Shown: positions 3,589-8,948 of the stretch, piece by piece | How positions within the stretch are numbered: position 1 is the stretch's first letter | How the letters are laid out: every line of letters starts with the position of its first letter | Translations under genes and position numbers: made by a program | The notes under the pieces: model-generated | Told to the model about the DNA's origin: nothing | Seen by the model: only the letters and a program-made list of their open reading frames with translations | The model's database searches: none | Assembly: GCA_905614365.1 (NCBI GenBank) | Contig: CAJQSO010000019.1 | Location: forward strand, 22,259-86,258 | DNA from: an uncultured Candidatus Thioglobus sp. | Lineage (GTDB): Bacteria; Pseudomonadota; Gammaproteobacteria; PS1; Pseudothioglobaceae | Direction: 5' to 3' | Length of the DNA stretch: 64,000 nt

Positions 3589-5250
3589 CTAAGTGCTTGA
3601 ATTTATCATCTCTTCAGCTGCTATTCGAGTTTTATCACTAACTGTAATGCCGCCTAAGATTCTTGCCACTTCATCCGTCCTTTCTTTAGGACTAAGGCTT
3701 GCAACTTGAGTGAAAGTTGAGCCATTTTTTTGCGTTTTTACAACCTTCATATGATCTTGTCCCTGCGCTGCAACCTGAGCTAGGTGCGTTACACAAATAA
3801 TTTGGTATCGATTTGATAATTTTTTTAACATCTGGCCAACAATTTCAGCAACTGATCCGCTGATACCTACGTCAACTTCATCAAATACAACTGATGGTGT
3901 GAGCTCAGTTTTGCTTGTAACAACTGAAAGTGCTAGAGAAATTCTTGATAACTCTCCACCAGAAGCTACTTTTCCGAGCGGCTTAAAATCTTGCCCAGCG
4001 TTAGTTTTTGTAAGAATGATAATTTCTTCCATACCATTAAGCCTTACAGCTCCTTCAGAAGAATTAATGCTAAAAGTGATTTCACTTCCCGGCATTCCAA
4101 GTTTTTGCATTAAGCTTGTAACCTCTTTTGAAAGAGACTTGCTCGCAATTACTCTTTCAGCACTCAATAACTTTGACTTGGCATAATATTCTTTCTCAAA
4201 TTTACTTTGCGCTAGTAATAACTGATCTATCTTATCGCTCGATGAGCCCAACATATTAAGATTTTCTTGCAAAGCTGATTGTGCCTCAAGTAGTCCTTGA
4301 ATTTGACAATTATGCTTACGACCAAGGTCATGAAGCTCATTAATTCTAGAACTAAGTAATGCTGAATTATCTTCTTGGCTGCTAATTTTACCGAGGTAAT
4401 CTGTCAAGTCATAAATTCCTTCCTGGACTTGAAGCTGGGCGCTTGCCAGTAATGAATGTATTGTGTCTAAGCGTGAATCAAGTTCTTTCGACTGATTAAC
4501 AATATTTTCACTTTCAATTAAAATATTATTAACACCTGATTCATTATCAAGAGAGTCTATTATTTTAGAAATTTTTTCAACAAGTTGGCTTGCGTTTGTA
4601 GAGACTTTATAGTCATCCTCAATATTATCAAGCTCATCCTGAGTCATTTCGGCTTGAATAAGTTCATTCAGTTGATGGGTTATTAACTCTTTTTGGGCTG
4701 CAAGGAGAGAGTTATTATTTTGTAAGTCTTCAACCTCATTCTTGACCGCTTGATAATTGTTGACAATATTATTTACTTCTTCACACTGCTTTTGAGTGCC
4801 GGCATAATCATCAAGTAGCAAGCGATGATGATTTGCTCGAAGTAACAGCTGATGCTCATTTTGGCCATGCATATCAATCAAAAAACTACCAATATCTTTT
4901 AGCGTTGATAAAGGCACATTAGAACCATTGACATATGAACGAGACTTTCCATCCGAAGCAATAACTCTTCGTAAGATGCACTCATTCTCATTTTCTAAAT
5001 CCAAGCCCTCTAAAAAAGTTTGAAGCTCAGTTCCAGAATTCAAACTAAATGTTGCAACAATTTCAGCTTTACTTGCGCCTTTCCTAACTAGTGACGAATC
5101 AGAGCGACCTCCAGAAACTAAACTTAATGCTTGAATTAAGATTGATTTACCTGCTCCTGTCTCACCAGTCACAACAGTCATGCCAGACTTAAACTCAACA
5201 CTTAGGTCTTCGACAACAACTAAATTTTTTACATGTAAGTGCTCAAGCAT
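3589..5250 (-). CDS. recN: DNA repair protein RecN
   Basis: TGETGAGKS Walker A, HGQNEHQ, ASGGELSR, FDEVDVGISG, VTHLAQVAA. Confidence 0.97.
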   Translation of the reverse strand: MLEHLHVKNLVVVEDLSVEFKSGMTVVTGETGAGKSILIQALSLVSGGRSDSSLVRKGASKAEIVATFSLNSGTELQTFLEGLDLENENECILRRVIASDGKSRSYVNGSNVPLSTLKDIGSFLIDMHGQNEHQLLLRANHHRLLLDDYAGTQKQCEEVNNIVNNYQAVKNEVEDLQNNNSLLAAQKELITHQLNELIQAEMTQDELDNIEDDYKVSTNASQLVEKISKIIDSLDNESGVNNILIESENIVNQSKELDSRLDTIHSLLASAQLQVQEGIYDLTDYLGKISSQEDNSALLSSRINELHDLGRKHNCQIQGLLEAQSALQENLNMLGSSSDKIDQLLLAQSKFEKEYYAKSKLLSAERVIASKSLSKEVTSLMQKLGMPGSEITFSINSSEGAVRLNGMEEIIILTKTNAGQDFKPLGKVASGGELSRISLALSVVTSKTELTPSVVFDEVDVGISGSVAEIVGQMLKKLSNRYQIICVTHLAQVAAQGQDHMKVVKTQKNGSTFTQVASLSPKERTDEVARILGGITVSDKTRIAAEEMINSST

Positions 5251-5262
5251 ATCTTTAATTTA

Positions 5263-6081
5263 TTAGACTTTTTGTCCCCAATGAAGCTTTGACCTGATAA
5301 TTTCAAAATAGTCATAACCTTTTGGATGAATTAGATGAACAAAATTTTCATGTTGCTTTACTCTAAGAGCTATGCCTTCTGATGCATGAACTGAGGATTG
5401 AGCATCAAAGCTAATTGTTGCTCTATCTTCACAATCTAAAAGAGTAATCATTACCTCACTTTCACCATCAAGAATGAACGGCCTATGACTCATTGTATGA
5501 GGGCTGATTGATACTAGGCAAATCGCATTTGTACTCGGATGCATAATTGGGCCTCCACTTGAAAGCGCATAAGCAGTAGAGCCAGTAGGTGTGGTAACTA
5601 TAATTCCATCTGCCCTCTGATTATTCACAAAGTCGCCATCAACATTCAGTTCAAACTCTATCATCCTTGGAGTTTCATTCCTATGAATTACTACCTCATT
5701 AAATGCCAGATGTTTTGACAATACTTTGCCTTTTTGTTCAATTTGACAGCTTAAAAGTGATCTTTTCTCTTTAATAAACTCACCATTTAGAACCGCACTA
5801 ACAACTGGCGTCATCGAGCCAACTGGAACATCAGCTAGAAAACCAAGGCGTCCTAAATTAACTCCAAGAATAGGAATATTGAAGTCTACATAAGTTCTTG
5901 CGGTATTCAATATGGTACCGTCACCACCAACAACAATAATTAGATCAGCATTTTTCTCAAAGTCTTTTTGATCCTCCAACAAAGTAACGCCAAGATCTTT
6001 AAGAAGCACTCCAAGCTCCAGGGCAGTTTTTTGACTGGTAAAATCGTTTGGTTTACAGATAACGCCAATAGAATTAAACAT
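5263..6081 (-). CDS. nadK: NAD kinase
   Basis: GGDGT, GVNLGRLGFL, NE, TPTGSTAYALSSGGP. Confidence 0.97.
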   Translation of the reverse strand: MFNSIGVICKPNDFTSQKTALELGVLLKDLGVTLLEDQKDFEKNADLIIVVGGDGTILNTARTYVDFNIPILGVNLGRLGFLADVPVGSMTPVVSAVLNGEFIKEKRSLLSCQIEQKGKVLSKHLAFNEVVIHRNETPRMIEFELNVDGDFVNNQRADGIIVTTPTGSTAYALSSGGPIMHPSTNAICLVSISPHTMSHRPFILDGESEVMITLLDCEDRATISFDAQSSVHASEGIALRVKQHENFVHLIHPKGYDYFEIIRSKLHWGQKV

Positions 6082-6085
6082 AGGC

Positions 6086-6115
6086 CTTGAAATATACTAA
6101 AAAGTAACTACATAA
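6086..6115 (+). promoter_or_regulatory. sigma32-like heat-shock promoter of grpE
   Basis: CTTGAAA (6086-6092), 15-nt spacer, CTACATAA (6108-6115), resembling the RpoH consensus CTTGAAA-N13-17-CCCCATNT. Confidence 0.55.
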
Positions 6116-6146
6116 CATGTTAAATATACATTAGTTTGGTTAAAAA

Positions 6147-6689
6147 ATGACAAAAAAGACAGAACAAAAAACTCAAGATGATACCTCTAAAGAGGTTAAA
6201 GAAGATTTAGTTGATGATAACAAAAATGAAGATTTAGCGACTCAGCTTTTAGAGGCACAGCAATCTGCAAAAGATAATTGGGATAAGCTTTTACGCTCCC
6301 AAGCCGAGATGGAAAACCTTAAAAGACGTACATCAAAAGATCTTGAAAATGCCCATAAATATGCGCTTGATGGTTTTGTTAAAGCCCTATTAGAGGTCAA
6401 CGACTCTCTATCAATGGGACTTAAGCTAGCTATGGATGAAAATGCAACTCTAGCAAATACAATTGAAGGAATTGAGCTTACAAATAAAGTTTTTATGTCA
6501 ACTCTTGAAAAATTTGGAGTTGAGGCAATAAATCCTGTTGATGAAAAATTTAACCCAGAACTTCATGAGGCAGTAACTATGGCGCCGATGCCAGACAAAA
6601 TATCAAACACTGTTTTAGAGGTTATCCAAGTTGGATTTACTTTAAATGGTCGATTAGTCCGCCCAGCACTGGTAATAGTCGTACAGTAG
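6147..6689 (+). CDS. grpE: Nucleotide exchange factor GrpE
   Basis: [35 protein letters not shown]. Confidence 0.97.
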
Positions 6690-6745
6690 ATTTACTCTTT
6701 TCAGTCACTGTCGAGTGGCCATCCTAAATGTAAACTTACTTTGAA

Positions 6746-7168
6746 TTAAAGATTTAAATAATCTTTAAATTCATCCTTAACATCACTACCAATGTCATTA
6801 GTTAGGTACTCATAAACATTGAAGATACAATCATAATAAATATCAGATAAGAATTCATCAATCTTTTCATAATCCTCATGATCATGATTAACCCACCACC
6901 TTGAATGAGGATCTTCTTCAACTTCATTCATCATTTCAGAGTCTAAAAACCTCAGATAGTGTTTTTCTACATACATAATCCTGTGAATCAACATATGTAA
7001 TGATCCTTCAAACATTCCGTCAACTCTAGTGATATTAAAGGAATCATCTGAAAATTTTGTTCTGACCTTAGTAAAGTTATAGGTTGATGATTTAGTATCA
7101 TCAATAATCGTTGTCAATTCTTTTGTAACAAATCTAATTATTGAATGTTTAACAAAGTTATTCATCAT
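6746..7168 (-). CDS. Hypothetical acidic protein with no alanine
   Basis: 140-aa ORF in AT-rich DNA; no recognisable family; zero Ala; lies in the GpC-free segment. Confidence 0.6.
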   Translation of the reverse strand: MMNNFVKHSIIRFVTKELTTIIDDTKSSTYNFTKVRTKFSDDSFNITRVDGMFEGSLHMLIHRIMYVEKHYLRFLDSEMMNEVEEDPHSRWWVNHDHEDYEKIDEFLSDIYYDCIFNVYEYLTNDIGSDVKDEFKDYLNL

Positions 7169-7247
7169 AATTTTTATTTTATTATAAATATGACTTTGTT
7201 AGATGTCTCCAACATACAAAATCAATCAGTCAAAAATACAACTGGAT

Positions 7248-7610
7248 TTAACTCTTCTTACTTTGATGAACGACTACTGGATTTGTTATATTCTTCTTTA
7301 TTAACTTATTAATAAACGTTTGTTTATCTTTAAGAAGTAGTTCAAGATACTCACCATTGTTGCAAAACACCACATTACCCTCTGTGTCTTCAATATAAAA
7401 ATAACCCCAATCAGTAATATCATCAAGACTAGTCGTTTGATCGGGTGCTAAGTGTTGAGTGTAGAAATGTTTCCACCATCTTTGGGAAATCCCTTCACTT
7501 TGTTGAAGTTGAAGCTCTAATGACTCTAAATTTTCTGCATCAAAATCATATGTAACAAAATCCACCTCTTTATGATTTTCTACATAATAAGTAACTGTAA
7601 AGTTTTTCAT
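7248..7610 (-). CDS. Hypothetical acidic protein
   Basis: ATG at 7610 (MKNFTVTYYVENH) preferred over the GTG at 7700; about 120 aa with only 2 Ala. Confidence 0.55.
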   Translation of the reverse strand: MKNFTVTYYVENHKEVDFVTYDFDAENLESLELQLQQSEGISQRWWKHFYTQHLAPDQTTSLDDITDWGYFYIEDTEGNVVFCNNGEYLELLLKDKQTFINKLIKKNITNPVVVHQSKKS

Positions 7611-7640
7611 TTGTAAAATGTTACAGGACACAAAAAATAT

Positions 7641-7703
7641 GTGGTGAAAAATCCATATACAAAATGGCTTTATTAGTGGTGAAAAAAACCTTGGTTTCAC
7701 AAC
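7641..7703. repeat. GT(G/T)GTGAAA motif, two direct copies and one inverted
   Basis: GTGGTGAAAAA at 7641-7651 and 7676-7686; inverted TTTCACAAC at 7695-7703. Confidence 0.55.
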
Positions 7704-7830
7704 ACAGTTTTAGACTGCTAGAATGTCCTATCTTAAGAGGGTTTCAATTTAGTTATTTCTGAGGTGCTTTTGTACACTGTGTGTTTATATTGAAATATAA
7801 TTAGTGATGATTTCAAATGAATAAATATAA

Positions 7831-8139
7831 ATGGCAACAAAAATAAATATTAAGCATACTCAAAGTGGAATGGTGAAGGCTGGTTTTTATGGTTATAGTT
7901 GGACATACCTCATCTTTGGTTGGTTTGTTCCCTTGTTCAGAGGTGAATTGGGAGTTGGGGCGCTTCATCTTCTTTTTACGATAGTAACTGGTGGTATTTG
8001 GCAACTTATTGTAAGTTTCCTATACAACAAACAATACATGACAAGAATGCTAACAAATGGCTGGGTTCTTGATGGGTCCGACTCAGACAAAGTTCTTGCT
8101 GGAACCGCACTAGGAATATCAACACATAATAACAACTAA
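7831..8139 (+). CDS. Small membrane protein, DUF2628/HrgC-like
   Basis: GYSWTYLIFGWFVPLFRGE...YNKQYMTRMLTNGW fits the GFSW...PLFRGD...YNK pattern. Confidence 0.65.
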   Translation: MATKINIKHTQSGMVKAGFYGYSWTYLIFGWFVPLFRGELGVGALHLLFTIVTGGIWQLIVSFLYNKQYMTRMLTNGWVLDGSDSDKVLAGTALGISTHNNN

Positions 8140-8157
8140 AAATCGTAATAGAATTAA

Positions 8158-8772
8158 GTGCATAATTTAAGAATTCCAATAGAGCCCTATAAGGGTGATT
8201 TATCAGGTGTTGCGCATTACCTCGATGAAATGAACTTTCAACTGTTAACGCAAATAGCGCCTTATAAAAACAATAATATTTGGACAGCATTATCACTTCA
8301 TGGATTTGGCTCAAATGCATCAGATATATTTAAACCAGGTTTTGTAGATACAAAGGTAGAGGTTGACACTCAATTGCAGTGGACTTCGCTATTCAACGAA
8401 CCTATTATGAAGCCAATACGTGAGATGATCTCTAAGCTACCTTGTAATTTTGAGAGAATTCGATTTACAAAATTAGTTGCAGGCAAGACTCTTAAAAAGC
8501 ATACAGACAATATAGATGATGATATTAAAAATAAAAAGATTGCTAGGCTCCATATTCCTATTAGGACCAATAATGATGTTATTTTTACTTTTTATGAAAA
8601 TGAAAATGATCCAAAAGGTAAGTTATTTAATCTAAAAACAGGGCAGTATTACTACCTTGACGTTACTAAACATCATTCCGTGAGCAATAATAGTAATATT
8701 GATAGATACCATCTAGTTATAGATTGCTTCATGAATGATGAGTTAAAAATACTATTTAAGGGTATTTTTTGA
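8158..8772 (+). CDS. Aspartyl/asparaginyl beta-hydroxylase-like 2OG-Fe(II) oxygenase
   Basis: HxD (KKHTD), RLHIPIRTN, distal His in KHHSVSN, RYHLVID. Confidence 0.75.
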   Translation: MHNLRIPIEPYKGDLSGVAHYLDEMNFQLLTQIAPYKNNNIWTALSLHGFGSNASDIFKPGFVDTKVEVDTQLQWTSLFNEPIMKPIREMISKLPCNFERIRFTKLVAGKTLKKHTDNIDDDIKNKKIARLHIPIRTNNDVIFTFYENENDPKGKLFNLKTGQYYYLDVTKHHSVSNNSNIDRYHLVIDCFMNDELKILFKGIF

Positions 8773-8948
8773 TATAAATACATTAATTTTCATCAAAATT
8801 AGCTATTTTTAGCTATTTTTTAAGTAATAACGATGTTTTTATGTATAAAAATAGTTAAATTACCATTTTTTTATCATTTTTTTAGATAATAAGTAATTTT
8901 TTTTAAATAATAAGACATATTCTTAAAAAAATCGCATATATTTGTCCC

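Follow-up and report, generated by a model that had tools for sequence, protein, structure and literature searches.

The question raised by this locus is how a piece of bacterial chromosome can come to lack one dinucleotide entirely, and what could have removed it. The locus lies in a 64,000-nucleotide stretch (the window; contig CAJQSO010000019.1 of assembly GCA_905614365.1) from an uncultured Candidatus Thioglobus sp., whose genome is here called G000 (1.135 Mb in 50 contigs). Just downstream of grpE, a short segment contains no 5′-GC-3′ (GpC) and includes a complete open reading frame (ORF) for a 140-residue protein, ORF140, devoid of alanine. The best explanation available, which we rate at slightly better than an even chance, is that the small islet carrying ORF140 derives from pipolins and that the DNA of these elements has been shaped by avoidance of restriction-type nucleases. 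Pipolins are understood here as small elements, integrative or episomal, that encode a DNA polymerase of family B able to start without a primer (piPolB).

The GpC-null stretch and its genes

The features of the window on which the argument relies are the following.

6147–6689, plus strand: grpE, the host flank and left edge, with ordinary GpC (14 alanine codons, 2 NGC codons, 8 G|C codon junctions)
6702–7808, no strand: variable islet of ~1.1 kb, 3′ of grpE, present in G000, G018 and G020
6719–7361, no strand: GpC-null stretch of 642–643 bp, spanning ORF140 with the spacers on either side of it and the final 38 codons of ORF2
6746–7168, minus strand: ORF140, 140 residues, 0 alanine, 0 GpC, acidic and mostly helical, homolog of a pipolin gene
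7169–7247, no strand: intergenic spacer between ORF140 and ORF2, 79 bp, GpC-free
7248–7610, minus strand: ORF2, a 120-residue orphan (from MKNFTV), 2 alanines, 4 GpC
7701–7714, plus strand: right copy of a 14-nt direct repeat, matching 13/14 positions of 6606–6619 inside the 3′ end of grpE

A dinucleotide count places GpC at 6661, 6666 and 6718 and then not before 7362, 7447, 7514, 7537 and 7667, leaving a gap of 644 bp (6718 to 7362) in which 6719–7361 holds none. CpG is present inside or near the segment at 7018, 7109, 7271 and 7317, as well as at 7434 and 7442. From base composition, 642 bp should contain 11.2 GpC, and from the genome-wide GpC observed/expected ratio (o/e) of 1.38, ~15; mononucleotide shuffling gives a probability of 5e-6 for zero. 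The gap ranks first among the 51,406 GpC gaps of G000, where the runner-up measures 329 bp and no further GpC-null segment was found among all gaps genome-wide; such segments are present in other genomes and contigs. In sliding 642-bp windows, GpC o/e is 0–0.08 here and at least 0.47 elsewhere in the genome, a minimum that also holds for 607 sampled windows with G+C below 30%; the segment itself has 27% G+C. The initial annotation had reported zero GpC from 6720 to 7361, exactly four up to 7660, CpG at the first four positions given above, about ten GpC expected and a GpC-rich grpE alongside. The recount reproduces all of these positions, composition gives a similar expectation, and GpC in grpE is of the ordinary host kind. 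The scan that it proposed places the segment far outside the composition-matched distribution, in agreement with its view that AT-richness alone is insufficient.

ORF140 is the sole alanine-free ORF of at least 100 residues among 1,051 crude gene calls, in which alanine averages 7.0%. With the protein sequence fixed and host codon usage applied, one would still expect 4.5 GpC (P of zero = 0.006), and the absence of GpC therefore exceeds mere lack of alanine. ORF2, with 4 GpC against 7.0 expected (P = 0.09), is not significantly depleted when taken alone. Both alanine counts of the initial annotation hold, none in ORF140 and two in the next ORF, and its description of the segment as GpC-poor up to 7660 is firm for ORF140 and weaker for ORF2, which is only weakly depleted and is regaining GpC. 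The contexts in ORF2 are TGCA, AGCT, AGCA and TGCA; three of its GpC are common to four genomes, and others were gained lineage by lineage, including palindromic AGCT and TGCA. Judged from the sequences, a gain in AGCT and TGCA, which the active elements avoid, is what relaxation after capture should look like.

ORF140 homologs and their parent elements

Of 61 related genomes, 6 have a homolog of ORF140, and many metagenome contigs carry one too. All of the full-length homologs, over a range of 46–97% identity, are free of alanine, which answers the comparison that the initial annotation had proposed, and the surrounding DNA is GpC-null (677 bp in G020, 676 and 550 bp in G018, 863 bp in G022). 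Since homologs and the DNA around them share the GpC-null trait, it is inherited and not local.

One homolog stands inside a complete mobile context. G029, Ca. Pseudothioglobus, is a congener of G000, and the host genus of both is Ca. Pseudothioglobus/Thioglobus. Its ORF140 homolog (75% amino acid identity) overlaps the stop codon of a gene for a 933-residue PolB (L008:11711-14512). Both genes lie in a block of 9,849 bp (L008:7234-17082) that contains 3 GpC against 240 expected, while CpG is present 81 times; its 12 ORFs encode 2,951 residues, of which 3 are alanine. The edges of the block are sharp, falling within the last glmS codons on one side and just past a large serine recombinase on the other. 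The block comprises small ORFs, a minimal HUH Rep (PF23343), a NERD/zinc-ribbon protein, the ORF140 homolog, the 933-residue polymerase, a tyrosine recombinase and the serine recombinase.

The piPolB motif has been defined as KH-X8-KTRG (PMC5695915). The G029 polymerase carries KH-X8-RTRG, with RTRG for KTRG, and its residues K613, H614, W622, R623, T624, R625 and G626 are invariant; the exonuclease and polymerase motifs D48/E50, N506-S507-x-Y509-G510 and T571-T572-D573-G574 are kept as well. The protein itself gave no Pfam, PHROG or PDB sequence match, and its family was set through homologs, which belong to PF03175 and among which are Rhodobacteraceae proteins with a DNA polymerase annotation; the PolB of the E. 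coli pipolin is 30% identical to it. On these motifs and homologies, the enzyme is of the piPolB type, and primer-independent synthesis is predicted for it.

Several of these pipolins are integrated in the glmS 3′ end, each beside a large serine recombinase (L008:5409-7256, L096:1761-3608 and the left flanks of L101/L102). Relatives of the G029 element, together forming clade I, are found at glmS in Saanich Inlet contigs (L096-L098), and clade I L094 adjoins the gamma-glutamyltransferase gene of an Emcibacteraceae alphaproteobacterium; the purged lineage therefore crosses bacterial classes. Most pipolins, across 80 genome loci, have ordinary GpC (o/e 0.9–1.3). Among them is L104, the closest AT-rich sister, whose GpC is normal at 36% G+C, so that AT-richness is not the cause of the purge.

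The most complete purge is seen in a marine metagenome contig (L148:1-9576), where 40% G+C goes with 0 GpC against 382 expected and a normal CpG count of 361. The proteins of this module, among them a serine recombinase and a Schlafen/AlbA_2 protein, amount to 3,036 residues without one alanine, and the module directly abuts a GpC-normal polB, a mosaic which implies that the trait travels with exchangeable modules. Other elements are intermediate. Contig L124 (8,430 bp), with its 127-bp terminal overlap, closes into a complete circle of 8,303 bp; this pipolin episome encodes piPolB, HUH Rep and two tyrosine recombinases, and has 81 GpC against 217 expected. In a Paracoccaceae metagenome-assembled genome (MAG), a GpC-null stretch of 1,856 bp (L021:669-2525) covers the small ORFs of an AT-rich pipolin whose polB is partly purged; this pipolin lies where a 282-kb contig from an alphaproteobacterium of high G+C ends (flanks 54% G+C). 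A module of Rep and small ORFs at L076:13000-14750 is almost without alanine at a GpC o/e of ~0.6, beside a GpC-normal polB of 51% G+C, and may have been purged formerly and be regaining GpC. The polB tree (FastTree) requires at least 4 changes of GpC state.

No gene specific to the purged elements was found. The module of the HUH Rep-like gene and small ORFs was considered as a correlate of depletion and rejected, as the Rep-like gene is common in GpC-normal pipolins and has normal GpC of its own. A scan of viral contigs gave only two distant PolB loci and hence no sign of these elements among catalogued viruses.

ORF140 would thus have come from a lineage of GpC-purged pipolins, been captured in a small chromosomal islet, and owe its GpC-null, alanine-free state to that lineage and not to the window locus. 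That the segment is a relic or cargo of such pipolins is, in our assessment, very probable. The proposal of the initial annotation that the DNA is foreign and came from a mobile lineage which purged GpC at the cost of alanine is borne out by the alanine-free homologs, by the one inside a 9.85-kb pipolin and by related GpC-free pipolins. Its candidate for an undescribed system in the window needs correction, the piece being no active system but a small chromosomal islet of relic or cargo type that has neither polymerase nor recombinase.

The window genome itself offers no parent element. Its glmS site is empty (G000 C7:37814-37927), and a profile search of the genus found no piPolB in G000, G029 being the 1 of 43 genomes with one; what the window carries is thus no pipolin but a fragment or cargo. 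At the islet, no polymerase, recombinase or tRNA was found. The islet is absent in G029, to which the window flanks 5000-6701 and 7809-8937 align at 93–95% identity and the part between does not, its place being taken by 358 bp of other sequence (locus L194). In G018 and G020 the block 6724-7659 is syntenic and 92–96% identical. These two genomes carry an extra gene between grpE and ORF140, for a 141-residue secreted protein, which the window genome does not have; G061 has this gene and ORF2, and no ORF140. Its three copies are the following.

L011:11093-11518 (G018): 141-residue secreted protein, 0 GpC, 0 alanine
L009:13470-13895 (G020): 141-residue secreted protein, 1 GpC, 1 alanine
L110:~1030-1450 (G061): 141-residue secreted protein

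Because gene content differs among G000, G018, G020, G061 and G029, the site downstream of grpE is a small variable slot that seems to collect GpC-free cassettes. The 14-nt repeat that brackets the islet may be an att-like scar or a product of chance; short two-copy repeats often arise by chance. Beyond the islet, a small membrane protein (window 7831-8139) and an Asp/Asn beta-hydroxylase-like protein (8158-8772; PF05118) follow grpE, with no called dnaK-sized ORF there.

ORF140 has a ratio of nonsynonymous to synonymous substitution rates (dN/dS) of 0.10–0.11 against the G018 and G020 copies, and this purifying selection in the chromosome (dN/dS ~0.1) indicates that the host keeps the gene for some use. 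An AlphaFold2 model predicts a helical fold with a hairpin at a pLDDT of 82. Structural matches were uninformative (Foldseek against PDB, ESM Atlas shape search and VIA wide search), the best PDB Z score of 6.4 being at noise level for helical proteins. Pfam gave no match for ORF140 or ORF2, and PHROGs gave weak matches only (E = 0.035 and 0.08), the single weak match of ORF140 having E = 0.08. A hidden Markov model search recovered 137 remote relatives of ordinary alanine content, some fused to leucine-rich repeat (LRR) or DUF4116 repeats, and the ORF140 domain appears to be an uncharacterised domain family. In the larger proteins P0238, P0240, P0253 and P0259, the domain is fused to LRR or DUF4116 arrays. 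ORF140 was also considered as the cause of the purge and rejected: outside chromosomal islets it is confined to pipolins of the G029 and L096 types, the GpC-free L094, L101 and L105 lack it, and remote members of its family have ordinary alanine content.

Order of loss, residual contexts and the agent of the purge

The polB genes record successive stages of depletion, given below as alanine codons / NGC codons / G|C codon junctions per gene.

Normal polB genes: 36–58 / 22–64 / 21–64
L021: 30 / 3 / 8
L105: 27 / 0 / 2
L101: 10 / 0 / 0
L103: 8 / 0 / 0
L095: 2 / 0 / 1
G029, L094 and L096: 1 / 0 / 0

Third- and first-position composition would lead one to expect about 20–40 junction GpC per polB gene, and NGT replaces NGC entirely in the G029 gene (55 to 0). 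Synonymous GpC is lost first and alanine codons after. Because NGC codons and G|C junctions are also purged, the constraint acts on the dinucleotide and not on alanine or its tRNA; avoidance of alanine codons or of tRNA-Ala was rejected on the same zeros and on the GpC-free spacers. The sole alanine kept in the clade I polymerase is A651, a nearly invariant residue. In alignment columns with alanine in the outgroups, members of the purged clade have serine 89, cysteine 25, glycine 23, valine 2 and threonine 0 times. A sequencing or base-modification artefact, with C read as T, is likewise rejected, since serine, cysteine and glycine codons replace alanine, not valine, and many independent assemblies agree. 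Within GpC-free clade I, the synonymous divergence dS exceeds 1 at a dN/dS of 0.06–0.15, which means that GpC-creating mutations are removed continuously and that the enzymes are functional.

The GpC that remain in partly purged genes carry a signature of context. Residual alanine codons stand in RGCR/YGCY contexts (AGCA/TGCT and others) in 80 of 82 cases, whereas RGCY accounts for 0/82, against 26% in control genes, and YGCR for 2/82, against 20%. On the coding strand the form is A+GCA or T+GCT, and never A+GCT or T+GCA. The circular episome L124 has asymmetric RGCR/YGCY contexts in 77 of its 81 residual GpC, and a third independent lineage (L153, L158) repeats the identical asymmetric pattern. 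Three partly purged polB genes from metagenomes depart from it, as their RGCY/YGCR/asymmetric counts show.

L131: 0/14/17, without RGCY only
L149: 15/1/19, YGCR lost
L136: 1/20/6, mainly YGCR kept

RGCY is thus the class lost in nearly all depleted lineages, and the differences in class from lineage to lineage fit several agents of different specificity, as though each host imposed a GC-core specificity of its own. No single-strand rule removes RGCY and YGCR and yet spares RGCR/YGCY, which argues for recognition of duplex DNA with two-fold symmetry. Other palindromes are avoided too: GTAC occurs 0 times against 14.3 expected in L105 and once against 9.1 in L101, and ACGT once against 12.4 expected in the G029 island (L008) and once against 6.6 in L096. 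GC-core words are scarce in this mobile DNA relative both to composition and to the host, whose GpC o/e is 1.33–1.38. Loss of symmetric sites together with avoidance of other palindromes are hallmarks of restriction avoidance.

In the mechanism that we propose, the parent elements would have been under a long-lasting constraint on their DNA at the level of the dinucleotide. Synonymous GpC in NGC codons and G|C junctions would be removed completely, alanine codons would next be replaced singly, mostly by serine, cysteine and glycine, and only functionally indispensable alanines would stay in the end. The agent would be restriction-type cleavage of the unprotected double-stranded element at GC-core sites, with RGCY-like and TGCA/YGCR-like specificities involved; in the fully purged clade, the enzyme or set of enzymes would amount to a two-base GC cutter like CviJI*. 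That the purge reflects selection of this kind, by restriction-type nucleases against GC-core sites in duplex DNA, has in our judgement an even chance or a shade more. The comparisons show the mobile origin, the succession of losses, the ranking of contexts and the purifying selection on the proteins; that a nuclease is at work, and which one, is inferred. Among the GpC-targeting agents listed in the initial annotation, restriction at GC-core sites fits best, as RGCY and YGCR go first and other palindromes are avoided, and methylation followed by deamination fits poorly. A GpC methyltransferase of the M.CviPI type with deamination agrees poorly with replacement of alanine by serine, cysteine and glycine instead of valine and threonine, with the finding of no C5 or N4/N6 methyltransferase in the incomplete genomes G000 and G029, and with hosts that are not depleted.

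Several points weigh against a nuclease as the agent. No GC-core nuclease or cognate methyltransferase was identified, though no search aimed at nuclease families was made. G000, G029, G018 and G007 have no match to PF00145 (C5) or PF01555 (N4/N6), G000 and G029 being 70–75% complete, and a C5 methyltransferase is present in only 8 of 43 genus genomes. We know of no bacterial enzyme that cuts all NGCN contexts, and the total purge in clade I, which includes AGCA/TGCT, therefore needs a new type of enzyme or several acting together. Kinship within clades means that the context counts overstate the number of independent events, independence amounting to at least three clades, and the trees are quick FastTree reconstructions from compositionally skewed proteins. 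Finally, the joining of a GpC-free module to a GpC-normal polB in L148 indicates that an element can put up, temporarily at least, with a partner that bears GpC.

Candidate protective enzymes add little to the case. The C5 methyltransferases of two genus genomes resemble M.HhaI/M.HaeIII in sequence, a resemblance that assigns no specificity. The C5 methyltransferase of G020 was rejected as the cognate enzyme, because it adjoins a Sau3AI-like nuclease in a GATC-type restriction-modification system (L099, G020:C1:842123-846358). The ORFs of the G029 island and L148, the two elements scanned, gave no match to a methyltransferase family; one L148 protein has a weak match to a type I specificity domain.

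An agent acting on single strands has to be weighed at this point. A GpC-preferring cytosine deaminase, whether a host defence or the toxin of a competitor, could attack single-stranded replication intermediates, GpC being lost through C-to-U change or the molecule destroyed through uracil excision. Single-stranded stages are plausible, since a strand-displacing PolB and a minimal HUH Rep are encoded; early loss of synonymous sites is what mutation pressure would predict as well, and only the element is affected, with the host spared. Valine and threonine are the products of GC-to-GT/AC transitions at alanine codons, however, and these are the two residues that hardly appear among the replacements of conserved alanine counted above. 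GT/AC is no more raised than other compensating dinucleotides, no deaminase gene was seen in the elements, and the survival of RGCR/YGCY while RGCY and YGCR vanish reflects a double-strand symmetry that no single-strand rule provides. We regard a deaminase as an unlikely agent.

Avoidance of marking is improbable as well. Here a GC-specific modifier, such as a phage CmoX-like carboxymethyltransferase or an M.CviPI-like methylase, would label resident DNA at every GpC, followed by type IV (modification-dependent) cleavage in the next host or by silencing; an element free of GpC would escape the label. Such enzymes read double-stranded DNA and are compatible with symmetric context effects, and GC-specific global modification of cytosine exists in a marine cyanophage (PMC12783734). 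No enzyme of this kind was found near the elements or in G000 and G029, the co-avoidance of GTAC and ACGT would be left unexplained, and two successive agents would be required.

A bias of the element's own making is a further candidate, in which its piPolB would miscopy GpC and let the sequence drift to a GpC-free equilibrium. Depletion does follow element boundaries sharply, and piPolB is a translesion, primer-independent enzyme (PMC5695915). Yet the perfectly GpC-free 9.6-kb module of L148 lies next to a GpC-normal polB, depleted clades have normal sisters so that at least 4 independent state changes are needed, the remaining context classes differ between lineages, and the alanine replacements look selected; we consider a polymerase bias very unlikely. 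Selection at the RNA level is scarcely plausible. It would favour transcripts that survive a GC-cutting endoribonuclease, in the manner of ACA-less mRNAs and MazF or of GCU and MqsR; the elements are compact and nearly all transcribed, and GC is self-complementary, which would protect both strands. Spacers are GpC-free too, loss of RGCY/YGCR with RGCR/YGCY kept is a feature of duplex symmetry, and the elements showed no gene or family of toxins. Chance, or simple AT-richness combined with an orphan protein that is low in alanine, has a negligible probability: the segment is short and AT-rich, and rare gaps are bound to turn up when many windows are scanned, but the shuffle probability, its outlying position among composition-matched windows and the conservation of the trait in alanine-free homologs, over several kb and in many independent assemblies, including the G029 block and the 9.6 kb of L148 at 40% G+C, refute it.

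Significance and relation to known systems

The GpC purge would be an extreme form of restriction-site avoidance, of which the window holds only a fossil. Word avoidance here reaches the dinucleotide and is carried to completion, as in the 9.6 kb of L148 at 40% G+C with 0 GpC. With 3 alanines in 2,951 residues of functional proteins under purifying selection, the G029 block indicates that 19 amino acids can suffice for natural proteins, a large replicative polymerase among them, and the rules of replacement can be read from nature: alanine gives way to serine, then cysteine, then glycine. The purge would imply that marine bacteria or phages possess an activity, strong and widespread, directed at GC cores, and the graded signatures (RGCY, then YGCR, then asymmetric contexts) give a concrete specificity to look for. 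GpC-null segments furthermore provide a simple sequence marker of element relics or cargo in MAGs, the window islet being one such case.

Together with the cyanophage modification of GC, these results suggest GC as a major battleground word in the ocean. A bolder and rather doubtful extension is that aquatic microbes or phages commonly deploy a nuclease whose recognition hardly extends beyond GC, the equivalent of CviJI* in the bacterial world. Elements would respond by deleting GC and remaking entire proteomes, a 930-residue DNA polymerase included, with essentially no alanine, and phages by masking GC chemically. If that were true and the nuclease were phage-borne and shredded host DNA, no resident DNA other than GpC-free pipolins might survive infection and go on replicating.

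Among known phenomena, restriction-site avoidance in phages and plasmids is the general parallel. There, mobile DNA is known to avoid words of 4–6 bp. The pipolins are alike in that short words are rare in the mobile DNA though common enough in its host, that the heaviest losses fall on symmetric sites, and that each lineage has its own avoidance set, with GTAC or ACGT added to the GC-core sites. The difference is one of degree, as in the present case the word shrinks to a dinucleotide, falls to zero over up to 10 kb and nearly takes an amino acid out of whole proteomes. A literature search for alanine-free proteins or elements, or for a dinucleotide purge, found no paper describing GpC-free, alanine-free DNA.

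Pipolins as previously described (Redrejo-Rodriguez 2017, PMC5695915; NAR 2024, PMC11551731) resemble the parent elements in their piPolB, with an extended KH-X8-(K/R)TRG motif, in their tyrosine and serine recombinases and small HUH Rep, in their integrated and circular forms, and in their modular build. Most pipolins differ in having normal GpC, and the window holds one accessory gene and no polymerase. A term search of PMC11551731 gave nothing relevant on dinucleotides, alanine or GC content.

The toxin-resistant transcripts (ACA-less mRNAs and MazF; GCU and MqsR) are alike in that a short word is absent from genes that need to stay intact under a nuclease. They concern RNA and one strand, whereas the spacers and the duplex-symmetric contexts seen here point to DNA.

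The closest enzymatic likeness is R.CviJI/CviJI* of chlorella virus IL-3A, whose RGCY specificity is the class lost in nearly all depleted lineages here. CviJI* spares YGCR, the class that L136 mainly keeps. CviJI cuts RGCY and relaxes to GC (PMC3681635); it differs in coming from a eukaryotic algal virus, and the clade I pipolins have lost YGCR as well.

The Synechococcus cyanophage S-B43 offers the complementary case. Its CmoX carboxymethylates cytosine at every GC motif, which its authors interpret as restriction evasion (PMC12783734). The phage thus resembles the pipolins in being a marine mobile genome with a counter-measure aimed exactly at GC, and differs in the means: it masks GC chemically, whereas the pipolins, with no modification genes seen in the elements scanned, delete it.

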